From the NCBI GenBank assembly GCA_964479955.1, contig CAYZNK010000001.1, forward strand, positions 77,073 through 141,072: a DNA stretch of 64,000 bases, written 5' to 3'. A program made the position numbers and the translations under genes. Below the pieces are notes generated by a model that ran no database searches, was not told the DNA's origin, and worked only from the letters and a program-made list of their open reading frames with translations. The stretch comes from an uncultured Candidatus Saccharibacteria bacterium. Lineage in GTDB: Bacteria > Patescibacteriota > Minisyncoccia > Minisyncoccales > Staskawiczbacteraceae. Positions 2,344 to 56,859 of this stretch are shown here, piece by piece; positions within the stretch are counted from its first letter, which is position 1; each line of letters opens with the position of its first letter.

Positions 2344-3313
2344 TTGTTTTTGATAGTTTTAATTTTATAAATAATACGACTGTGGCAGAAATTATAGTTA
2401 AAATTACAGCTATTAAAAATAAAAACCAAGGATTTGTTGAGCTTTCTTGTATCGCGGACAAACCTTTTTCTTGGATTGTATTTAAGTTAAAATTTTTATC
2501 TATAAGCCCTGCTTCTATATTATTAACAGAGTTTTCTATTTTTAGCAAGCCTTTATCTGTTTCAGAAGAGATAATATTTTTTGTTCCCTTTGTTATGTCT
2601 TGGCTCCATTGCCACCCTGGGGAAATTTTATTATAAGATTGTCCCGTGGGAGATTTTTGAAAAATAACACTATCTGCAATCTCCCCATTCGGATATAAAA
2701 GGAATAATCCGTCTTCGTTATTATTCAATATTATTTTTGTTTCAGGCCTTGTAAAAACTAAATATCCGTTTGAAAAAATTTTTGTTCCAGTCGGAATAAT
2801 AAAAACAACAACAGTCCCAACACTGTCTTTTATTTGCCATCCAGACAGGTCAACATCAAAATTATTGCTGTTAAAAATTTCAATCCATTCTTCTGAGTCG
2901 TCTGCACCTTGCGGGGATGGAAGAATCTCGTTCAGAAAAACTCCTTTTGGGTATTCAATAATGGAAAGCTCGGGATTATTGTTATCTTCTTTATTTTCTG
3001 CACTAATTGTGGCAGAATTTTCTGCACTAATTGTGGCAGATAGTGGTTCTATGGCTTCTGTCTGGCAATCTACGCATGCAAAACCCTGGTCTTTTATTTT
3101 TTGCAAAGTTTTTTCTCCAATACCTTTTACTTCGAGCAAGTCGTCTAATGACAAATATGGACGGCCATCAATAATTCGTTGAGCGTATGTCGGGCCAATT
3201 CCTGTCAGTTGGTCTAACTGCCCCAAGGTTGCTGTATTAATATCTATTTGTTCTGCGAAAATTAAAAAAGGAAAAAATAAGGCCAGTAAAAGAAAAAATA
3301 TAATTTTTTTCAT
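2330..3313 (-). CDS. Secreted/anchored ComEA-like helix-hairpin-helix DNA-binding protein fused to a lamin-tail (LTD) domain, C-terminal TM anchor
   Basis: Signal-like N-terminus. ComEA-type HhH segment INTATLGQLDQLTGIGPTYAQRII...VKGIGEKTLQKI. LTD-like LNEILPSPQGADDSEEWIEIFN...LSGWQIKD. Hydrophobic C-terminal helix. Confidence 0.7.
   Translation of the reverse strand: MKKIIFFLLLALFFPFLIFAEQIDINTATLGQLDQLTGIGPTYAQRIIDGRPYLSLDDLLEVKGIGEKTLQKIKDQGFACVDCQTEAIEPLSATISAENSATISAENKEDNNNPELSIIEYPKGVFLNEILPSPQGADDSEEWIEIFNSNNFDVDLSGWQIKDSVGTVVVFIIPTGTKIFSNGYLVFTRPETKIILNNNEDGLFLLYPNGEIADSVIFQKSPTGQSYNKISPGWQWSQDITKGTKNIISSETDKGLLKIENSVNNIEAGLIDKNFNLNTIQEKGLSAIQESSTNPWFLFLIAVILTIISATVVLFIKLKLSKTNVRT
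2995..3040. repeat. Tandem 24-bp duplication inside the ComEA/LTD gene (encodes SATISAEN twice)
   Basis: tttctgcactaattgtggcaga occurs twice back to back (2995-3016 and 3019-3040). Confidence 0.9.
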
Positions 3314-4572: not shown

Positions 4573-5925
4573 TTAAACTTCAGATTTTGAATTTTCAAAA
4601 AACTCATCTTCTTCTACCATTCTCCTAACTTCATCTAAGGTTGTTTTCCCTTCTGCTACATCCAGTAGTCCTGACTGGTACATTGTCACCATACCCTTTT
4701 TAATTGCCAAATCCCTAATTGATGAAACTGGCGGGTTTGTCAGAATAAACTTTTCCATTTCAGAGTCAACCAAAAATGCTTCAAATAATCCCTGCCTACC
4801 CTTAAAGCCAGTAAAATTGCAGGTCTCACAGCCTTCTTTTTTAATTCTTGCAATCTTGATTTTGTCTAAGTTTGGCAGTTTTATTTTTGATTTTAAAGAC
4901 AAAGATTTTAATCCTTTTTTAATTTCAGCCAATTCTTCTGGTTTAGGATTTTCCAGAGCAGAGCATTTTTTGCAAACTTTTCTTACCAGCCTTTGAGCAA
5001 CGGCCATCTTCAAAGCGGGCGCTATTGAAGAAGATTCTGCCCCCAAATCAACAAGCCTTGGTATTGTTCCGGCCGCATCATTTGTGTGCAAAGTTGAAAG
5101 CACTAGGTGTCCGGTTAAAGCCGCCTGCAAGGAGATTTTTGCGGTTTCCAAATCCCTAATTTCTCCAACCAGAATAACATCCGGATCTTGTCTTACAATA
5201 GACTTTAAGCCGTCGGCAAAAGTATATCCTTTTTCGGGGGCAATCTGTGTTTGAGAGATTCCTTTTAAATGATATTCAATCGGATCTTCAATAGTGATAA
5301 TTTTGACTTCCGGGTTTTGTATTTTTTTTAAAAAAGCATACAGCGTTGTTGTTTTTCCAGATCCAGTGGGGCCTGTAACAATTATCATTCCATTGGGTTT
5401 TTGAATTTCTTTTTGAAAAATTTTATATAAGTCTTCTCTTAAACCAAGGCTGCTCAAATCAATCAAATTTTTGGGATTTAATATTCTTAAAACAATTGAT
5501 TCTCCGTATTCAGCCGGCAAACTGGAAGTCCTTATTTCAACCAATGTCTCGTTAACTTCAATCGAAAACCTGCCATCTTGGGGCTTGTCTGTTATATTTA
5601 ATTTTAGTTTTGAAAGAAGTTTTATTCTTGAAAGAAGGCTGCGGTAAATATTTTGTTCAAAAAAAACAACATCTTGTAAGATGCCGTCTAATCTAATTCT
5701 AAGCTTGGCTTGGTCCTCTTGGGGCTCTATATGGATGTCAGAAGCATCAAGCTCTATTGAGCCAAAAAGAATCATGTCCACAAGTTCTGTGGTGCTTTTT
5801 GAAATTGTTTTTTCAATTATATTTTTAAGGCCACCAATATTCTTGGCCGATTTTTTGAATTCTTCAATGGTCTGACCGGAGATGGACACAGAGCCTAATA
5901 TTTTTTTTGTGGAATCATCTGGCAT
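4573..5925 (-). CDS. Type II/IV secretion system ATPase (GspE/PilB family)
   Basis: Walker A GPTGSGKTTT, Asp box, Walker B ILVGEIRD, His box LVLSTLHTNDA, and a C-terminal tetracysteine CxxC...CxxC motif. Confidence 0.88.
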   Translation of the reverse strand: MPDDSTKKILGSVSISGQTIEEFKKSAKNIGGLKNIIEKTISKSTTELVDMILFGSIELDASDIHIEPQEDQAKLRIRLDGILQDVVFFEQNIYRSLLSRIKLLSKLKLNITDKPQDGRFSIEVNETLVEIRTSSLPAEYGESIVLRILNPKNLIDLSSLGLREDLYKIFQKEIQKPNGMIIVTGPTGSGKTTTLYAFLKKIQNPEVKIITIEDPIEYHLKGISQTQIAPEKGYTFADGLKSIVRQDPDVILVGEIRDLETAKISLQAALTGHLVLSTLHTNDAAGTIPRLVDLGAESSSIAPALKMAVAQRLVRKVCKKCSALENPKPEELAEIKKGLKSLSLKSKIKLPNLDKIKIARIKKEGCETCNFTGFKGRQGLFEAFLVDSEMEKFILTNPPVSSIRDLAIKKGMVTMYQSGLLDVAEGKTTLDEVRRMVEEDEFFENSKSEV

Positions 5926-11179: not shown

Positions 11180-12115
11180 ATGTTATATTTTATTTACGGA
11201 CAAGATTCTTATAGGTCAAAAAAAAAGCTTGAAGAAATAGTTGAAGAATACAAAAAGATCCATAGATCCGGATTGAATTTTATATCCATTGACGCCAGTA
11301 AAAAAGAGTTTGAAGACTTTTTTAACAGTTTTAAGATATCCCCAATGTTCTCTGAGAAAAAGCTGGTTATTTTAAACAACGTTTTTTCAGATAAAAAATT
11401 TCAGGAAAAATTTTTAGAAAATTTTAAAAAAATAAAAGATATAAAAGATATCATTATTATTTTTGAAGGAGAAAAAACTGACGAAAGAACAAAGCTTTTT
11501 AAAATCCTTAAAAAAGAAGCAAAATGCCAAGAGTTTTCTTTTTTGACCCAAGCCAATCTAAAAAAATGGATAGAAAATGAATTTAAAAAATGCGGGGCCA
11601 AAATTGATTTTCAAGCTGAGGATTTTCTTTTAAATATTGTTGGAAATAATCTTTGGCAAATGGAAAATGAAATTAAAAAATTGTCCCTTTTTAAAAAGGG
11701 ACAAATAATAAAAAAAGAGGATATTGAATTGCATGTAAAACCTAAAATAGAAAACGACATATTTAAAACAATAGAGGCCTTAGCTGCAAAAAATAAAAAG
11801 CAGGCTCTCTCTTATTTGCATAATCATATAGAATCCGGAGACAATGAGATATATATATTATCAATGATAGCTTATCAATTCAGAAATCTTTTGATAATAA
11901 AAGAGCTGGCTGACAAGGGAAATCCCTATTACGCTATAGCCCAAAAAAGCGGGCTACACCCTTTTGTGGTTAAAAAAACTTTTTATCTTTGTAGTAAGTT
12001 TTCCCTGGAACAGCTTAAAGGGATATACAAAAAAATTTTTCAGACAGATTCAGATATCAAATCGGGAAAAATTGATTCTGAATTAGCCTTGGATATGCTT
12101 ATTGCAGAAATTTAA
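11180..12115 (+). CDS. holA: DNA polymerase III subunit delta
   Basis: 311 aa; N-terminus YFIYGQDSY and overall HolA-like helical pattern (LWQMENEIKKL). Confidence 0.75.
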   Translation: MLYFIYGQDSYRSKKKLEEIVEEYKKIHRSGLNFISIDASKKEFEDFFNSFKISPMFSEKKLVILNNVFSDKKFQEKFLENFKKIKDIKDIIIIFEGEKTDERTKLFKILKKEAKCQEFSFLTQANLKKWIENEFKKCGAKIDFQAEDFLLNIVGNNLWQMENEIKKLSLFKKGQIIKKEDIELHVKPKIENDIFKTIEALAAKNKKQALSYLHNHIESGDNEIYILSMIAYQFRNLLIIKELADKGNPYYAIAQKSGLHPFVVKKTFYLCSKFSLEQLKGIYKKIFQTDSDIKSGKIDSELALDMLIAEI

Positions 12116-12150
12116 GATATTCAAAAACTCCGCTTCAAGCAGAGTTTTTA

Positions 12151-12194
12151 GAAATGTTGGGAAATTTCACGGCCGTGAAATTTCCCAACATTTC
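12151..12194. terminator. Perfect 44-nt palindrome (22-bp arms) acting as a bidirectional terminator between holA and rpsT
   Basis: gaaatgttgggaaatttcacgg|ccgtgaaatttcccaacatttc. Preceded by a second smaller hairpin (12125-12149). Confidence 0.75.
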
Positions 12195-12222
12195 TTATAA
12201 TTAAATTAATATTTAGGTTATT

Positions 12223-12483
12223 TTATTTTTTATCTATCATTTTTGCAAATCTTGATTTCTGGCGGGATGCAGTGTTCTTTTTTAAAACATTTACTTTGAC
12301 TGCTTTATCCAATGCCTTAAATAGTTTTGGCAGGATTTTTTTGGCTTCTTCTGTGTTCTTTTTGGAAACAAAAGTTTGAACCTCTTTTGAGAGGTCTTTT
12401 ATATTATTCCTATAAAGTAAATTTTGGTTTTTCCGCCTTAAAGACTGGCGAATAGCTTTTTTAGCTGATTTTGTAATTGCCAT
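12223..12483 (-). CDS. rpsT: 30S ribosomal protein S20
   Basis: MAITKSAKKAIRQSLRRK...; 86 aa, basic, classic S20 N-terminus. Confidence 0.93.
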   Translation of the reverse strand: MAITKSAKKAIRQSLRRKNQNLLYRNNIKDLSKEVQTFVSKKNTEEAKKILPKLFKALDKAVKVNVLKKNTASRQKSRFAKMIDKK

Positions 12484-53166: not shown

Positions 53167-53933
53167 CAATAGTTGAATCCATATTTTTGGCAATAGTACA
53201 GGGCCTGACAGAATTTTTACCGGTTTCAAGCTCCGGACACTTAGTTTTGTTTCAAAAAATATTTGGCATGCAGAAAGCCCCGGTTTTTTTTGATACAATG
53301 GTTCATGGAGCAACTTTAGCCGCTGTTATTTTTTATCTTAAAAAAGATATATTAGATATTATATTTAGTCCTAAAAAAAATTTCAGACTAGTGGTAAATA
53401 TAATTATTGGAACCTTGCCCGCTGTTTTTTTTGGGCTATTTTTTAAAGATTTTATTGAAAAAACATTCAACTCTCTGCTGCTTTTATCTTTTTGTTTTTT
53501 TATAACAGCCCTGCTTTTATTTTTAACAAAATTTTTTGGCGAAGAGGGTAAAGATGTTCAGCAAATAAATGTAAAAGATTCTTTTATTATAGGAATTTTT
53601 CAGGCTTCCTCAATATTGCCTTCAATATCAAGGTCTGGAGCAACGATTGCCTCAGGAATATTCCGGGGATTAGATAGAAAGTCTGCTATGAAGTTTTCTT
53701 TTCTTTTATCAATCCCGGCAATAGCGGGAGCTATGGCTTTGCAGATTTTTAATATAAGCAATGTTTCCCTAAATGAGATTTATTCTTCTTTATGGGGATT
53801 TTTTCCCGCCTTGATATTCGGCTTTGTATCCTTGAAATTTTTGGATAAATACATGGCAAATAAAAAGTTTTCTGTTTTTTCTTATTATTGCCTTCTTCTG
53901 GCGATAGTCTCTTTGGTGTTAAACTATATTTAA
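53163..53933 (+). CDS. uppP: Undecaprenyl-diphosphate phosphatase UppP (BacA)
   Basis: IVQGLTEFLPVSSSGHL and SRSGATI motifs; 8 TM helices. Followed by the aaccgg-tttaag-ccggtt terminator. Confidence 0.92.
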   Translation: MTIVESIFLAIVQGLTEFLPVSSSGHLVLFQKIFGMQKAPVFFDTMVHGATLAAVIFYLKKDILDIIFSPKKNFRLVVNIIIGTLPAVFFGLFFKDFIEKTFNSLLLLSFCFFITALLLFLTKFFGEEGKDVQQINVKDSFIIGIFQASSILPSISRSGATIASGIFRGLDRKSAMKFSFLLSIPAIAGAMALQIFNISNVSLNEIYSSLWGFFPALIFGFVSLKFLDKYMANKKFSVFSYYCLLLAIVSLVLNYI

Positions 53934-53977
53934 TGTAATCAAAGAAACCGGTTTAAGCCGGTTTTTTTGATTATAAT

Positions 53978-54640
53978 TTATCTTTTTTTTGCCTTAATCA
54001 ATAAGTATTCCGGTATTTTCATGTTTTTAAAAATCCTGCAGGTTCCCTGGTTTTCTTCTGCATACAAAAGGTCAAAATGATTTAAAAAATAATTAGACAG
54101 ATAATCTATTAGTGTGTGCGAGGGTTGTGAAATTTTTATTTTTCCGAATATTTTGACGACTATTTCTTTTTTCTTAAAATAATCTTTATTTTTTTTCAGG
54201 AAAAAAACGCTCATAGGGTGATGGACAGACATAATCAAAATGCCGTCTTTTTTTAAGCACCTGAAAAATTCTTTAAAAGCAAAATTGGGGTTGTCTAAAT
54301 AATGCACCGCGTATTTGCTGACCACCAAATCAAAAAAATCATTCTTAAAGGGAAGCTTTTTTATATTTGAAACAAATAAGTTTTTAGCCAAATGAGGATA
54401 CTTTTCTTTAGCTATTTTAATAATATGTTCGGAAATATCAGCCCCAAAAACATATGCTCCTTTTTTAAGCATAGCATCTGTGTCATATCCAAATCCGCAG
54501 CCGGCATCTAAAACAGTTTTATTTTTAAGGGAGCCGGCTATTTTAAAAATTTGTTTTTGCCTTACAGCGCCCTTTTTTTCCCAATTTTTCATTGATTCCC
54601 TATAAAAGTCATAGGAAATTTTTTTGTTATAACGGCGCAT
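53978..54640 (-). CDS. Class I SAM-dependent methyltransferase
   Basis: Motif I VLDAGCGFGYDT and motif II FDLVVSKYAVHY. Start moved to the ATG at 54640 because the track's upstream extension reads through the tRNA-Leu gene. Confidence 0.85.
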   Translation of the reverse strand: MRRYNKKISYDFYRESMKNWEKKGAVRQKQIFKIAGSLKNKTVLDAGCGFGYDTDAMLKKGAYVFGADISEHIIKIAKEKYPHLAKNLFVSNIKKLPFKNDFFDLVVSKYAVHYLDNPNFAFKEFFRCLKKDGILIMSVHHPMSVFFLKKNKDYFKKKEIVVKIFGKIKISQPSHTLIDYLSNYFLNHFDLLYAEENQGTCRIFKNMKIPEYLLIKAKKR

Positions 54641-54660
54641 AGAAAGAGAAATAAATGCAG

Positions 54661-54744
54661 TGCCCGAGGTGGGAGTTGAACCCACAATTCCGTAAGGAAA
54701 TGCGATTTTGAGTCGCACGCGTATGCCAATTCCGCCACTCGGGC
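54661..54744 (-). tRNA. tRNA-Leu (anticodon CAA), type II with long variable arm
   Basis: Hand fold: acceptor GCCCGAG/CTCGGGC, discriminator A, anticodon stem TGCGA/TCGCA with loop CT-CAA-AA, long extra arm, T-arm GTGGG-TTCAACT-CCCAC. CCA is not encoded. Confidence 0.88.
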
Positions 54745-54749
54745 AAAAA

Positions 54750-55001
54750 TTAAATACTTTTTATATATTCTTTTCCAAATCCAGATTTTAAAAATTTTTC
54801 TCTTTTTCTAGCTTCAATACGATTTGGAAGCATTTCGATTAAAATTGTTTTAAATGGTTTATAAGGTTTTGTTGTTTTGCTATATCCTTTATTATGTTCT
54901 CCAATCCTTCTTTTTATATTATCAGTTATACCGACATAAATATAATTTTTAAATTCGCTTTTGATTGCGTAAACGTAATACATGATATTCTGAATTTTCA
55001 T
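54750..55001 (-). CDS. GIY-YIG domain nuclease (small URI-type, COG2827-like)
   Basis: YYVYAIKSEFKNYIYVGITDNIKRRIGEHNKG...ARKREKFLKS carries the GIY, YVG, R, E and N elements. The stop is 5 nt before tRNA-Leu +1. Start ATG at 55001 or 54983; the track's TTG at 55013 lies in the tRNA fragment. Confidence 0.8.
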   Translation of the reverse strand: MKIQNIMYYVYAIKSEFKNYIYVGITDNIKRRIGEHNKGYSKTTKPYKPFKTILIEMLPNRIEARKREKFLKSGFGKEYIKSI

Positions 55002-55004
55002 ATT

Positions 55005-55048
55005 GTATGCCAATTCCCTGCCTGCCGGCAGGCAGGCGCCACTCGGGC
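55005..55048 (-). pseudogene. Displaced tRNA-Leu 5' fragment (nt 1-24) interrupted after nt 12 by a perfect 20-nt palindrome cctgcctgccggcaggcagg
   Basis: Exact match to the intact tRNA on both sides of the palindrome (55017-55036). No anticodon or T arm follows. Confidence 0.8.
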
Positions 55049-55061
55049 ATTTTATAGAAAA

Positions 55062-55089
55062 ATTATAGCATAATCTGCAATATTTTCAA
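55062..55089 (-). promoter_or_regulatory. Sigma70-like promoter (TTGAAA - 16 nt - TGCTATAAT) reading into the tRNA fragment, GIY-YIG ORF and tRNA-Leu
   Basis: Minus strand: ttgaaaatattgcagattatgctataat. The tRNA fragment +1 lies 13 nt downstream of the -10. Confidence 0.55.
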
Positions 55090-55092
55090 CAC

Positions 55093-56859
55093 TTATTCCC
55101 ATGAAGCATCTATTATTTTTTCGGGAAATTTTTCCGATAATTTGATAAAATTTGGGCAGGAAACCCTGTGCAATACTGCAGACCTTTGTTTTGTAAGATA
55201 TGCTTTTACTTTATCTCCGGGTTCTGGTTTGCAACATTTTGCGATGTTTATTAGCATTCCTTTCTGTCCGGCTAAATAAATATGTCTTAATTTTTCCTTT
55301 TTTATTTGTTCCTGTTGTATTTTTTTACTTTTTGCAGCTTGCGCTATTTCAATAATTTTCTTTTTTATAAATCCGGGGATGGGGAAATTAAATGTTTCTT
55401 TTTGATTAAAAAACCTCTTGATATGATTTTCTGCAAGGCTTGTTTTCACAAATTTAAGCCAGTCTTTTGAAGGGTTTCTTTTTTTATTAATTATTATCTC
55501 TACGATGTCTCCATTTTCTAGCCTGGTTGAAAGGTTGGCGATTTTGCCATTGATTTTTGCTGATTCGCAATGGTTTCCAATTTCAGAGTGTATGGCATAA
55601 GCAAAGTCAACGGGAGTTGAATCTTTTTTTAAAACAATAATATCTCCCCTTGGAGTTAAAACAAATACCTGATTTTCAAAAAAATCAATTTTAAAGCTTT
55701 TCCAAAATTCAGGCAAAGACTCTTCTGTTAAATCGCTGTTTTGGTTTCTGAGCGTATTTACCCATTCAAAATCTTTATCAAATTTTTTAAGGTTTATTTT
55801 TTCTTTGTATGACCAATGCGCGCAGATGCCATGTTCTGCTTCATTGTGCATTTGTTTGGTTCGTATTTGTATTTCAGTTATTCTGTCTTTGTCGGAAAAA
55901 ACAGTTGTGTGTAAAGATCTGTATCCGTTTGATTTTGGCTTTGCTATATAGTCGTTTATTTCTTCTGAAATAGGTTTAAAATATTTATGGACAATACCAA
56001 GCACTTTGTAACAGGTAGGCATGTCTTCGACAATAATGCGCAAGGCTAAAAGATCATGGACTTTTTTGAAATCCATATTTTTTTTAACAAGCTTTTTATA
56101 TACACTCCAGTAAGATTTTGCCCTATAATTTGTTTCAAAATTTCTAACCCCTTCTTTTTTAAGAATCTTTTGCAGTTTTGCGATAAAGCGTTTTAAATAT
56201 TTTTCCCTTTGCCTATACTCCTCTTTGATGTTTTCATGGAGCCAATTAAACTTTTCGGGAAACAAAAAAGAAAAAGAGATATCTTCAAGAGATCTTCTTA
56301 TTTTATTTAATCCTAATCTGTTTGCAATCGGCGAAAAAATTTGTAGAGTCTCAAAAGCAAATATTTTTTGTTTGTCTTCCGAAAGAGTATTCAAAAAATT
56401 CAGTCCGTCAAGCCTTGAAACAAGCTCAACCAAAACAACTCTCAAGTCTCCGGCAATGGCCAAGAACATTTTTCTTAGGTTTTCTATTTTCTCTTTTGAA
56501 AAATTTTTCTTTTCAGAAAAGTTAGCCGCTAAAGGATAACGTATTTTTGCAAGGTCCGAATTTTTTTTGACAAGACCCGCGATTTCCTTCCCGAATTTTT
56601 TTTCTATTTCTTGAAGCTGCAGTTTTTTTGCCGAATCGGGGATATCGTCCAAAGTATCATGTAATAGGGCATAGGCTATTGTTGTGGAATTAAGTCCGGC
56701 TTCGGCCAAAGTTAAGGCTACCCTTGTTGCATGATATATATAATTTTCTCCGGAAAGACGATTTTTGTCTTTGTATGCCTCTTTTGCAAATTCAAAAACA
56801 TCGCTGATTAGTTTGGGATCAGAGCTGTTTTTGATTAATTTTTGCAATTCATTTTTCAT
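55093..56859 (-). CDS. Bifunctional (p)ppGpp synthetase/hydrolase, RelA/SpoT (Rel) family
   Basis: HD domain (HATRVALTLAE...LHDTLDD), synthetase (YIAKPKSNGYRSLHTTV, EIQIRTKQMH), TGS (VFVLTPRGDII...DFAYAIHSEIG). ATG at 56859 preferred; the track's longer start overlaps topA by about 100 nt. Confidence 0.9.
   Translation of the reverse strand: MKNELQKLIKNSSDPKLISDVFEFAKEAYKDKNRLSGENYIYHATRVALTLAEAGLNSTTIAYALLHDTLDDIPDSAKKLQLQEIEKKFGKEIAGLVKKNSDLAKIRYPLAANFSEKKNFSKEKIENLRKMFLAIAGDLRVVLVELVSRLDGLNFLNTLSEDKQKIFAFETLQIFSPIANRLGLNKIRRSLEDISFSFLFPEKFNWLHENIKEEYRQREKYLKRFIAKLQKILKKEGVRNFETNYRAKSYWSVYKKLVKKNMDFKKVHDLLALRIIVEDMPTCYKVLGIVHKYFKPISEEINDYIAKPKSNGYRSLHTTVFSDKDRITEIQIRTKQMHNEAEHGICAHWSYKEKINLKKFDKDFEWVNTLRNQNSDLTEESLPEFWKSFKIDFFENQVFVLTPRGDIIVLKKDSTPVDFAYAIHSEIGNHCESAKINGKIANLSTRLENGDIVEIIINKKRNPSKDWLKFVKTSLAENHIKRFFNQKETFNFPIPGFIKKKIIEIAQAAKSKKIQQEQIKKEKLRHIYLAGQKGMLINIAKCCKPEPGDKVKAYLTKQRSAVLHRVSCPNFIKLSEKFPEKIIDASWE

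Follow-up and report, generated by a model that had tools for sequence, protein, structure and literature searches.

A 77-residue GIY-YIG nuclease gene and a palindrome lodged in a partial tRNA copy form a candidate selfish element of bacterial tRNA-Leu genes

The main finding of this study is a candidate small selfish element of tRNA-Leu genes—a gene for a 77-aa GIY-YIG protein together with a palindrome in a partial copy of the tRNA—which would spread via tRNA homology and be driven by the promoter of the tRNA gene that it occupies, a reading to which we assign a probability of roughly 55%. We describe it from one locus in a 64-kb stretch of DNA (the window, meaning the whole stretch that was analysed) and from its relatives in other genomes. 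The cassette arrangement, which recurs across distant bacterial phyla, appears to be undescribed. Literature searches for the 20-nt palindrome, for its 12–18-nt cores, and for GIY-YIG combined with tRNA-Leu, palindrome or Patescibacteria returned no description of it, and the only relevant paper was the Ssn study (PMC11893778).

The locus reads on the minus strand in the order promoter, tRNA nt 1–12, a 20-nt perfect palindrome, tRNA nt 13–24, GIY-YIG ORF and intact tRNA-Leu(CAA), and the cassette is flanked by RelA/SpoT and class I methyltransferase genes. This is the order proposed in the initial annotation, every part of which we found in its place. The sigma-70-like promoter of the original tRNA gene (55062..55089, minus strand) consists of TTGAAA at 55089–55084, a 16-nt spacer and TGcTATAAT ending at 55062; 11 of 12 consensus positions agree, the −10 is extended by a TG, and no promoter-like site within 53900–55300 is stronger. 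A native 13-nt leader, ttttctataaaat (55049..55061, minus strand), connects it to tRNA position 1. The half of the stub far from the ORF, GCCCGAGTGGCG (55037..55048, minus strand), is identical to nt 1–12 of the intact tRNA and represents the gene's resident 5′ end. The half on the ORF side, GAATTGGCATAC (55005..55016, minus strand), matches nt 13–24 of the intact tRNA. Between the two lies the palindrome CCTGCCTGCCGGCAGGCAGG (55017..55036, unstranded), a clean insert between tRNA nt 12 and 13, and once it is taken out the alignment confirms that the 24-nt duplication claimed earlier is exact. The stub is followed by AAT and by an in-frame ATG at 55001, a start that would give 83 aa. The ORF of about 84 aa in the initial annotation is thus a nuclease gene as proposed but shorter, since the start conserved in the family (MYYVYAIK) is the second ATG, at 54983, which yields 77 aa plus a stop codon (54750..54983, minus strand; TAA at 54752–54750). 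A 5-nt spacer, TTTTT (54745..54749, minus strand), separates the stop codon from nt 1 of the intact tRNA-Leu(CAA) (54660..54744, minus strand), which opens with the same 24 nt as the stub and is supported as a tRNA gene both by ARAGORN and by the Rfam tRNA model (56.9 bits, E 3e-11). An Rfam scan of 54000–55600 at E-value thresholds gave this tRNA and, on the opposite strand, a plastid match due to chance, and nothing else. The whole insert measures about 310 bp, and the 77-aa GIY-YIG gene is the sole ORF inside it. The identical sequence is found in two independent assemblies, L081 and L082, so the arrangement is not an assembly artefact, an explanation that was ruled out by its presence in three assemblies and in more than 80 genomes.

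Comparison with relatives provides the empty site against which this anatomy can be read. In L118 and L119, whose RelA is 89% identical, the tRNA-Leu(CAA) site has essentially the promoter of the window, differs little from it in the leader and not at all in the tRNA (100% identity), and the ORF, the stub and the palindrome are all absent. The promoter of L118 is identical to that of the window at 26 of 28 bases, and its leader reads ttttttataaaat. Loci L120–L124 also possess the RelA gene, the promoter and the tRNA-Leu(CAA) with no ORF, stub or palindrome, and relatives at 69–73% RelA identity are likewise empty. Set against the empty site, the window shows two additions: the palindrome, and some 290 nt that comprise the ORF and a duplicate of tRNA nt 1–24. 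The earlier proposal of a cassette inserted at tRNA-Leu with an intact tRNA kept, and the comparison of empty and occupied loci that went with it, are therefore borne out: the 5′ end of the tRNA gene, which carries the promoter, survives only as a dead stub, and the complete tRNA stands downstream of the ORF. Because the intact tRNA of the occupied window allele is 100% identical to that of the empty allele in L118, any site lying wholly inside the tRNA persists after occupation. Two familiar kinds of insertion were rejected: a tRNA intron, since the tRNA downstream of the ORF is complete, and an integrase-type island, since a recombinase is absent.

The same architecture is found well beyond the window. 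Among 80 loci that were picked by protein similarity alone and searched to 400 nt around the gene, 74 have a co-oriented tRNA-Leu within that distance, with five anticodons represented (CAA, TAA, TAG, CAG and GAG). The search for other GIY-YIG ORFs beside tRNA genes, proposed at the outset, was thus productive across genomes, and the 64-kb window itself yielded no further GIY-YIG ORF and no further tRNA-stub copy. The homologues are 58–79% identical and come from genomes of Patescibacteria, Bacteroidota, Ignavibacteriota and others. Across the family, a partial tRNA copy lies on the side of the ORF opposite the intact tRNA, and it is the 5′ part of the tRNA that is duplicated in the window and in about two-thirds of the loci. 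The ORF alignment ends 6–25 nt from the tRNA in about two-thirds of the loci, and some stop codons directly abut tRNA nt 1. A stub upstream of the ORF extends to tRNA nt 1 in 32 of 41 cases, and one downstream of the ORF extends to the tRNA 3′ end in 10 of 13. Family-wide, the stub side far from the ORF is nearly perfectly identical to the local tRNA (726/734). The ORF-side segment, typically 9–14 nt long, matches a foreign tRNA in L004 and L058, as does the whole stub in L006 and L062. Simple tandem duplication was ruled out on these grounds, some stubs being partly or wholly foreign to the local tRNA. In L168 the duplication runs past the tRNA into the leader, and in L041 and L044 into the terminator, so tRNA homology is not the sole boundary.

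Several observations bear on mobility and decay. Tandem ORF–stub arrays occur in L027, L031, L066 and L071, a repeated stub adjoins the ORF in L078 and L080, and four copies carry premature stop codons. Clades on the GIY-YIG tree mix phyla, and between the window and L001 the GIY-YIG protein is 79% identical, RelA only 63%. In many lineages of Patescibacteria, the cassette sits at the same RelA/tRNA-Leu(CAA) locus, and this constancy, along with the conservation of the protein across phyla with its catalytic residues intact and the precedent of SsnA (PMC11893778), might suggest a domesticated host function in which the nuclease and the hairpin control recombination or DNA uptake at tRNA-Leu, or serve tRNA-Leu biology directly. 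We regard such a function as very improbable: the nearest relatives do without the cassette, some copies show premature stops or tandem duplications, the phylogeny mixes phyla, and the one palindrome of the 64-kb window is too few for genome-wide control of uptake.

The protein is a bare catalytic domain. The window ORF matches the Pfam GIY-YIG family PF01541 (63.4 bits, E 2.5e-17), no NCBIfam family being assigned to it, and an alignment of 25 homologues shows Y5, Y16, R25, R26, H30, N31 and E62 to be invariant. AlphaFold2 predicts a single domain for the 77-aa protein with a pLDDT of 94. The nearest folds are UPF0213, the Slx1 nuclease domain and I-TevI (TM 0.58–0.74 for UPF0213/Slx1), and the closest solved relatives by sequence are again of the UPF0213/YhbQ type (PDB 1YWL and 1ZG2) and the Slx1 domain, with E values of 1e-7 to 1e-6 and 26–32% identity. 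The GIY-YIG core spans residues 1–77 and leaves no room for an extra DNA-binding domain. Longer database entries have N-terminal extensions ahead of the conserved 77-aa core, which we read as start codons apparently called too far upstream, through the stub and the palindrome. A tblastn search of plasmids with the window protein gave no match at E ≤ 1e-3. A looser search with a consensus sequence retrieved UPF0213-like genes of chromosomal type and one SsnA-like protein of S. meliloti, and a search of a phage collection found distant GIY-YIG genes only.

These properties weigh against a rival mechanism, in which a classical free-standing homing endonuclease cuts unoccupied tRNA-Leu genes and repair copies the cassette into them, the palindrome either disabling the stub or marking the old cut. 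The GIY-YIG domain is indeed the catalytic module of such enzymes, both empty and occupied alleles are found, and tandem re-insertions are seen. The cassette also occurs at all five tRNA-Leu isoacceptors, which have acceptor and D-arm sequence in common. Phage T4 SegB, a GIY-YIG homing endonuclease encoded in and acting on the T4 tRNA gene region, offers a precedent. We nevertheless think this mechanism unlikely. First, the protein has just 77 aa and is devoid of a DNA-binding domain. Second, the intact tRNA is the same in both alleles, so an occupied allele would not be immune. Third, the end points of the duplication differ among loci—about nt 24, 33 or 45, or else a 3′ segment duplicated downstream of the ORF—so there is no single homing site, and the single site in the D-arm that had been proposed did not survive the comparison. 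Finally, an insert that served to disable the stub need not be the same 20-mer across phyla and tRNA types.

The palindrome is the second constant component of the cassette. CCTGCCTGCCGGCAGGCAGG or a close variant accompanies the ORF, at a distance of no more than 400 nt, in at least 65 of the 80 homologous loci, and family stubs are nearly always split by it, at differing points of the tRNA (positions 6, 12–15, 22–23, 32–33, 38–39 and 64–70). More than 80% of cassettes have one, typically 12–35 nt from the start codon or 24–52 nt past the stop, and the same 20-mer recurs across phyla whose G+C content ranges from 29% to 71%. By a rough estimate, its density in stubs is several hundred-fold above that in the rest of the approximately 480 kb of fetched loci, which hold about 10 extra copies. 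More distant GIY-YIG homologues (32–50% identical) have the same palindrome beside tRNA-Asn, Ser, Arg/Lys and Lys-like genes. The main variant, CCTGTCTACCGACAGGTAGA, is common to a Bacteroidales/Rikenellaceae group whose loci largely cluster on the protein tree, and its five changes are mutually compensatory within two 6-bp stems that are offset from each other. These stems fit better than a full 10-bp nested hairpin, which was rejected as the conserved structure because its covariation was no better than in shuffles. Hairpin folding of the palindrome as DNA is predicted at −8 kcal/mol. One palindrome variant is asymmetric, and its orientation relative to the ORF hints at a polarity, though too few independent lineages have it for this to count. 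Of the three roles originally offered for the palindrome (disabling the stub, attenuation and recognition by the nuclease), the last fits best, and the palindrome is, by analogy with the Ssn nucleases, a probable hairpin recognition element of the GIY-YIG protein. The Ssn search motif itself (SRM), HGTCWYN(0-2)YYVSBRHN(0-5)WNVSBRGN(0-2)RNCYNB, occurs in 0 of 81 loci, the window included, within 500 nt on either side of the ORF.

A predicted stable hairpin next to a gene could also act in the RNA. GC-rich and always placed in the transcribed non-coding part adjoining the ORF, in the 5′ or the 3′ untranslated region, the palindrome might stabilise or attenuate the nuclease mRNA, much as REP hairpins stabilise upstream mRNA. 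We consider this rather improbable, though compatible with our main explanation. A structural role would leave compensatory changes free to accumulate, whereas the sequence is nearly invariant across phyla, and the palindrome is found in either position and either orientation relative to the ORF, and also far from any such ORF.

Copies away from the gene call for separate attention. The search for further palindromes proposed initially found none in the 64-kb window, even at three mismatches (0 of 100 shuffles gave a match), but across phyla it revealed a near-invariant sequence that is also present far from tRNA genes. Solo palindromes are scattered in metagenome and phage contigs: 114 of 127 sampled metagenome palindromes have no GIY-YIG homologue within 400 nt, 32 of these 114 lying within 350 nt of a contig end, and a 29-kb phage contig contains six copies with no GIY-YIG homologue detected. 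A nearby gene is therefore not needed for the palindrome to persist, or to move, which counts against our main reading. Such copies would suit an independent selfish micro-repeat of the REP or MITE kind, mobilised by another enzyme, for which the stub is merely the nearest dispensable DNA and the GIY-YIG gene is unrelated. This possibility gains from the predominance of solo copies in metagenomes and phages, from nested and tandem palindromes (L027, L068, L074 and L087), and from the 7–25-nt direct repeats that often flank solo copies and suggest an insertion process of their own. Yet an unrelated repeat would hardly account for a palindrome in over 80% of cassettes at typical distances from the ORF, for a density in stubs that greatly exceeds the one in the remaining intergenic DNA of these loci, for the retention of the same 20-mer by distant homologues at other tRNAs, or for the grouping of most CCTGTCTACCGACAGGTAGA loci on the protein tree, and no alternative mobilising gene adjoins these cassettes. 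On balance, we find an independent repeat unlikely as an explanation.

Returning to a selfish tRNA-Leu element that comprises both gene and palindrome, the anatomy suggests how it would live with its host. A single RNA from the tRNA promoter would span the stub, the palindrome, the ORF and the tRNA, and RNase P would free the tRNA a few bases past the stop codon. The host would retain its tRNA, and the nuclease gene would borrow a strong promoter. The suggestion that the original tRNA promoter drives both the ORF and the tRNA agrees with a promoter upstream of the stub and nothing promoter-like between the ORF and the tRNA, and co-transcription with release by RNase P fits stop codons 0–25 nt from tRNA nt 1 across the family. 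Comparison among loci supports spread by recombination through tRNA sequence, a homology common to species and to tRNA-Leu isoacceptors, in which exchange on either side of the palindrome would generate either stub–ORF–tRNA or tRNA–ORF–stub. The homology on the far side of the palindrome is often only 12–15 nt, which is short for RecA-dependent exchange and speaks against such spread. By analogy with Ssn, and given its conservation, the palindrome may be read by the nuclease as a DNA hairpin in single strands exposed when the locus is replicated or heavily transcribed from the tRNA promoter. A nick nearby could then create a recombinogenic end flanked by tRNA sequence, leading to excision or to copying into another tRNA gene. 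We infer binding and cleavage of the palindrome by the GIY-YIG protein from the same analogy, and the recombination steps are conjecture, since it is not obvious how cutting of the donor locus by its own nuclease would aid spread. A broader and tentative idea is that the palindrome and the 77-aa GIY-YIG proteins may represent an unrecognised class of mobile DNA. Here, a nuclease acting on a single-stranded DNA hairpin would move both the palindrome, as the smallest mobile unit known, and its own gene, with tRNA homology carrying them across phyla, the tRNA always rebuilt, and Leu, Ser, Arg, Lys and Asn subfamilies.

If the selfish-element reading is true, it has several implications. A 230-bp gene would exploit essential tRNA genes as a parasite that costs its host nothing, by borrowing the promoter and rebuilding the tRNA, and the conserved sequence of tRNAs would act as a portable homology by which transfer between phyla is possible, the streamlined Patescibacteria among them. 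The principle of a tiny GIY-YIG protein reading a hairpin, known from Ssn, would extend to a new protein subfamily with a well-defined 20-nt site, which would be of practical interest for single-stranded DNA tools. It would also explain annotation problems such as tRNA pseudogene fragments, a “GIY-YIG nuclease family protein” beside tRNA-Leu, and gene models seemingly extended through the stub. Its predictions would be testable in culturable carriers, namely Mucilaginibacter psychrotolerans (strain NH7-4, L017), Ekhidna lutea (DSM 19307, L074), and Catalinimonas (L034) and Daejeonella (L072) species.

Finally, the cassette shares features with several known systems. Genomic islands and prophages that enter tRNA genes by means of an integrase bring along a segment that replaces part of the tRNA. 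Here, too, the tRNA stays complete and a partial copy, now displaced, forms a direct repeat with it; where the stub is downstream, the duplicated part is even the 3′ one, as in such islands. Unlike these elements, the cassette encodes no tyrosine or serine recombinase and spans about 310 bp in all; in the window and about two-thirds of the loci its duplication concerns the 5′ part, and repeat lengths vary among loci. Since the palindrome splits the displaced copy and is absent from the functional one, it is not an att core. The free-standing GIY-YIG homing enzymes of phages, such as SegB and I-TevI, have 200–250 aa and recognise a long, asymmetric sequence of the empty allele through DNA-binding domains. 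The cassette resembles their genes in the GIY-YIG fold, in being a small selfish gene between or beside other genes, in presence/absence polymorphism among relatives and, for T4 SegB, in the association with tRNA genes, but its product is a catalytic domain alone, and the phage genes have neither a duplication of the target gene nor a conserved palindrome. UPF0213/YhbQ proteins and the Slx1 domain, the closest solved relatives by sequence and fold, are housekeeping-type proteins of 94–107 aa or subunits of structure-specific nucleases, and they are not known to be associated with tRNAs or palindromes.

Short palindromic repeats offer further parallels, for which REP/RAYT and Rickettsia palindromic elements have been cited as examples (PMC11893778). 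The 20-mer is likewise a short, scattered palindromic repeat whose insertions into RNA genes are tolerated, and, as in REP/RAYT, copies adjoin a small nuclease-type gene whose product is thought to act on a single-stranded DNA hairpin. In contrast to REP/RAYT, the enzyme is a GIY-YIG protein and not an HUH/Y1 transposase, so rejoining of DNA by the nuclease cannot be assumed. The 20-nt repeat is moreover identical across phyla, and its tight link to tRNA duplication has no counterpart in REP. The single-strand-specific Ssn nucleases (CDD cd10448) with their NTS/SRM hairpin repeats, reported by Chenal et al. (Nat Commun 2025; PMC11893778), provide the basis for our analogy. SsnA (94 aa; catalytic Y6, Y17 and E64) binds to a hairpin repeat that borders the gene encoding it, and its cuts fall in single-stranded DNA, a few bases from the hairpin; SsnA and the NTS modulate transformation in Neisseria (PMC11893778). 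There are also differences, of which the lack of an SRM and the profile scores given below weigh against our reading. The window repeat is a loop-less, perfect 20-nt palindrome unrelated to the NTS, with no SRM in the 81 loci; the gene usually has one or two palindromes in its vicinity, and the 64-kb window contains a single one; and the palindrome is embedded in a duplicated tRNA fragment, the word “tRNA” being absent from the text of the Ssn paper (PMC11893778). As a proxy for SsnA, we used a 94-aa S. meliloti protein (L246) with Y6, Y17, E64 and an SRM motif about 170 nt upstream. The family profile scores this proxy, which is not SsnA itself, at 34 bits and UPF0213 proteins at 32–35 bits, so that similarity to the SsnA-like protein is no higher than to UPF0213. 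The likenesses concern the design of the system. Both proteins are small and single-domain (77 aa in the window, with ≤150 aa as the criterion for Ssn), and their catalytic residues are spaced almost identically (Y5/Y16/E62 in the window). Next to both genes stands a short inverted repeat with a conserved sequence and the capacity to fold into a hairpin, and further copies of the repeat lie elsewhere, in an arrangement like that of an insertion sequence.

This analysis shows an insertion polymorphism at a tRNA gene, in which the tRNA is regenerated. On the minus strand of the window (54400-55400), the order given in the initial annotation (promoter, leader, split stub with palindrome, ORF and tRNA) was confirmed. 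The promoter (TTGAAA at 55089-55084, a 16-nt spacer and TGcTATAAT ending at 55062), which scored 11/12 in a promoter scan and is the top-scoring site of the region, is separated by a 13-nt leader, read from the sequence, from the stub, a displaced partial tRNA copy in which GCCCGAGTGGCG (55048-55037) and GAATTGGCATAC (55016-55005) flank the 20-nt palindrome CCTGCCTGCCGGCAGGCAGG (55036-55017). Computed comparison bore out the proposed 24-nt duplication, the two halves being exact matches to tRNA nt 1-12 and 13-24. There follow AAT, an ORF with an upstream in-frame ATG at 55001, its TAA at 54752-54750, TTTTT and an intact tRNA-Leu(CAA) (54744-54660), which both ARAGORN and Rfam (56.9 bits) support. 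The ORF does encode the predicted GIY-YIG domain (Pfam, E 2.5e-17), but not at the ~84 aa first assigned to it: the second ATG, at 54983 (MYYVYAIK), is the start in every homologue, and the protein is therefore 77 aa long. No second copy of the palindrome was found in the 64-kb window with up to three mismatches allowed, and no shuffle produced it. Two independent public assemblies (L081 and L082) have the identical arrangement. Other perfect palindromes in the window are one of 24 nt (11681-11704) and one of 46 nt (12150-12195, AGAAATGTTGGGAAATTTCACGGCCGTGAAATTTCCCAACATTTCT), the latter lying between convergent ORFs (11180-12115, plus; 12223-12483, minus) and probably being a bidirectional terminator.

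The initial annotation had proposed comparing occupied and empty tRNA-Leu(CAA) sites among relatives, and the site is indeed empty in L118-L124. Going by the names of its RelA homologues, the window belongs to a Staskawiczbacteria-like lineage of the Patescibacteria. In L118 and L119, whose RelA is 89% identical to that of the window, the RelA stop codon is followed by the same promoter, a near-identical leader (ttttttataaaat), a tRNA-Leu(CAA) identical to the window tRNA at all 85 nt and a terminator, with no ORF, stub or palindrome at the locus; L120-L124 (RelA 69-73% identical) are likewise empty. Two gains set the window apart from the empty site: the 20-nt palindrome, placed between tRNA nt 12 and 13, and ~290 nt made up of AAT, the ORF, TAA, TTTTT and a further copy of nt 1-24. 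In this occupied arrangement the promoter precedes the stub, and a promoter scan of the window locus found no promoter-like sequence between ORF and tRNA. The tRNA promoter would co-transcribe cassette and tRNA, with RNase P freeing the tRNA. Directly 3' of the tRNA, with no terminator in between, the window has a class I SAM-dependent methyltransferase gene (53978-54610, minus) that is absent from the closest relative, L118, where the order is tRNA, terminator and an undecaprenyl-diphosphatase gene (BacA/UppP); this difference is a second, independent insertion or deletion at the locus. In L123 and L124 (~4790-4850), about four tandem GGGAATAGTT units run across the RelA stop codon, ahead of the tRNA-Leu promoter. 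The conserved RelA/tRNA-Leu(CAA) junction is occupied in many Patescibacteria (L001, L004, L011, L020, L025, L030, L032, L035, L037, L043, L047, L049, L053 and L068), where the palindrome occupies position 12, 15, 23 or 32, a pattern that may reflect either repeated invasion or an old insertion followed by re-insertion of the palindrome.

The architecture is recurrent, with duplication boundaries at tRNA ends. A profile of the 77-aa protein, run against one genome per species, yielded 394 confirmed loci, and the analysis kept the best 80, chosen by protein alone (58-79% identical). Among these 80, whose hosts are many Patescibacteria lineages, Bacteroidota, Ignavibacteriota, Balneolales and a few otherwise-labelled metagenome bins, 74 have a same-strand tRNA-Leu within 400 nt, most of the others ending at a contig edge, and all five anticodons (CAA, TAA, TAG, CAG and GAG) are represented. 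Class A, about two-thirds of the loci including the window, has the order stub, ORF, intact tRNA, the ORF alignment ending 6-25 nt from the tRNA and the stop codon abutting tRNA nt 1 in several loci; class B, mostly Bacteroidota, has the order intact tRNA, ORF, 3' stub. The far end of the stub is a natural tRNA end, nt 1 in 32/41 class A loci and the 3' end in 10/13 class B loci. Tandem ORF-stub arrays (L027, L031, L066 and L071), an ORF with a stub on each side (L005), a complete tRNA copy bearing the palindrome (L007) and premature stop codons in four of the 80 copies (L018, L020, L076 and L080; ORF 3001-3231 in each) are signs of a mobile, decaying element; the last four keep their stub and tRNA context, which fits decay following invasion. 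As judged by sequence comparison, the cassette has spread horizontally, because protein clades mix phyla and the window and L001 share 79% identity in the GIY protein versus 63% in RelA. Of 1.84 billion cluster representatives searched, 12,921 matched at E <= 1e-3, with 2,726 still matching at E <= 1e-10. Some database entries (P0002, P0003, P0005 and many of P0241-P0390) are 100-130 aa long with the conserved core from about residue 25, and we suspect start codons placed too far upstream, in models crossing the palindrome and tRNA stub. A tRNA-Leu(TAA) cassette on a metagenome contig of 31% G+C (L223, 650-877) seems to read UGA as glycine (genetic code 25, Gracilibacteria/Absconditabacteria type), since TGA occupies conserved glycine positions (YVG, KSGxGK).

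In at least 65 of the 80 loci, the stub is split by CCTGCCTGCCGGCAGGCAGG or a variant with at most four substitutions, and the variants of several additional loci differ by small insertions or deletions. The palindrome is a clean 20-nt insertion without target duplication, found in class A after nt 15 (n=17), 32-33 (n=10), 22-23 (n=7), 12-14 (n=4) or 6 (n=1) and in class B mostly after nt 68, positions that we read as loops or stem-loop junctions of the cloverleaf. In most class A loci it precedes the start codon by 12-35 nt, and in class B it follows the stop by 24-52 nt. Its density in stubs exceeds that in the rest of the fetched genome loci, as a rough estimate, several hundred-fold. The far-side stub segment is identical to the local tRNA at 726/734 positions; the segment between palindrome and ORF is short, mostly 9-14 nt, and in L004, L006, L058 and L062 this ORF-adjacent part corresponds not to the local tRNA-Leu but to a foreign one (as does the whole stub in L006 and L062). 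Because the far side is local and the ORF side is foreign in some loci, these alignments suggest that the palindrome is a junction of resident and incoming DNA. In place of the palindrome, L022 (Ignavibacteriaceae, 2940-2975) has GGCGGAA-TCCGCC-TAA-GGCGGA-CAGG, in which an inverted copy of the neighbouring tRNA bases is followed by the palindrome's final four bases (CAGG); this may be the trace of a break at the palindrome repaired by fold-back. Unrelated hairpin inserts occur near the D-loop position in L010 (~20 nt) and L006 (~31 nt).

The palindrome extends beyond tRNA-Leu. Exact CCTGCCTGCCGGCAGGCAGG is present in 35 phage-contig stretches (L083-L117, 38-68% G+C) and at least 120 metagenome contigs (L125-L244, 29-71% G+C). 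Most of the phage and metagenome copies listed have no GIY-YIG gene within 400 nt; among the matches listed, 9 of 127 metagenome copies have a homologue within that distance, six beside tRNA-Asn, -Ser, -Arg/Lys or -Arg genes (L168, L174, L197 and L218), one at tRNA-Leu (L223) and two in L214, where no tRNA was found. The stub-palindrome-ORF-tRNA plan recurs at tRNA-Asn (L168, 780-1190; GIY-YIG 32% identical), tRNA-Ser(GGA) (L174, 4300-4870; 40%), tRNA-Arg/Lys (L197, 640-1145; 50%) and tRNA-Arg(TCG) (L218, 270-700; 46%), and with a tRNA-Lys-like stub in L114 (480-860), whose downstream tRNA copy, without an ARAGORN call, appears to be broken, possibly by an intron, following the CT of the anticodon loop. 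A single stub contains two palindromes in both L218 and L223. Solo palindromes lie in intergenic DNA, nested in further copies and in other tRNA-like sequences, including tRNA-Met (L084 and L107) and a tRNA-Gly-like sequence (L045); direct repeats of 7-25 nt often flank them (e.g., L085, L091, L101, L127 and L170), and one 29-kb phage contig (L103, L110 and L111) has up to six copies.

The AlphaFold2 model of the protein (pLDDT 94) is a bare GIY-YIG core, and the 77 aa contain no DNA-binding domain. Among solved structures, the folds nearest to it are those of UPF0213 (1ZG2), the Slx1 nuclease domain (TM 0.69-0.74) and I-TevI, relatives on which a sequence profile search concurs; Y5, Y16, R25, R26, H30, N31 and E62 are invariant among homologues. 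The most frequent multi-change variant of the palindrome, CCTGTCTACCGACAGGTAGA, differs by five transitions and is common to a Bacteroidales/Rikenellaceae group (L012, L027, L029 and L031, in tandem in two to three copies at L027 3252-3291 and 3609-3668, with a derivative nested within another copy in L038). Its five changes are uncompensated in the full nested palindrome, whereas all five are compensated in two overlapping 6-bp stems (1-6/11-16 and 5-10/15-20). Across 23 distinct variants, compared with 500 shuffles, the nested structure has no excess covariation (470-497/500 shuffles as high), in contrast to the offset stems (3/500 and 0-1/500). Since these variants are few and related, the covariation is only suggestive of single-strand hairpins rather than a symmetric double-stranded site.

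By analogy, the best guide to the action of the nuclease is the Ssn family. SsnA has 94 aa, a single GIY-YIG domain and the catalytic residues Y6, Y17 and E64; it binds a conserved hairpin repeat flanking its own gene and cuts single-stranded DNA a few bases upstream (PMC11893778). Three sequence features argue that the cassette protein likewise reads its palindrome: the 20-mer is near-invariant across proteins only ~60% identical, more distant homologues at other tRNAs keep it, and one variant is common to a group of related loci. Lying close behind a very active tRNA promoter, the palindrome would be exposed as single-stranded DNA, and we conjecture that hairpin-directed nicking would then create a recombinogenic end flanked by tRNA sequence; however, donor-side cutting alone does not explain spread, and most solo palindromes have no nearby nuclease gene. 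Recombination through tRNA homology would spread the cassette: an intermediate, circular or tandem, with a palindrome-bearing tRNA fragment would produce class A or class B according to the side of the palindrome on which exchange occurs. L014, a class B locus inside the class A clade with its palindrome at position 32, fits this. We put the probability of this overall explanation of the cassette at roughly 0.55.

An integrase island and a REP/RAYT system are ruled out, the cassette having no recombinase and its enzyme not being a HUH transposase. In the literature searched, which omits most subscription-journal papers, we found neither the 20-mer in a bacterial context nor a description of GIY-YIG genes linked to tRNA-Leu duplications, and the cassette is widespread and apparently undescribed. 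In the way it works, it comes closest to two systems, an Ssn nuclease paired with its hairpin repeat and a free-standing homing endonuclease gene, but it failed defining tests of both. The Ssn SRM motif is missing in all 81 loci, and an SsnA-like protein scores no better (34 bits) than UPF0213 proteins do; as for a homing endonuclease, the protein lacks a DNA-binding domain and the tRNA of the occupied allele is the same as that of the empty allele. We rate the cassette as joining two known kinds of element, small GIY-YIG nucleases associated with hairpins and insertions that regenerate a tRNA.
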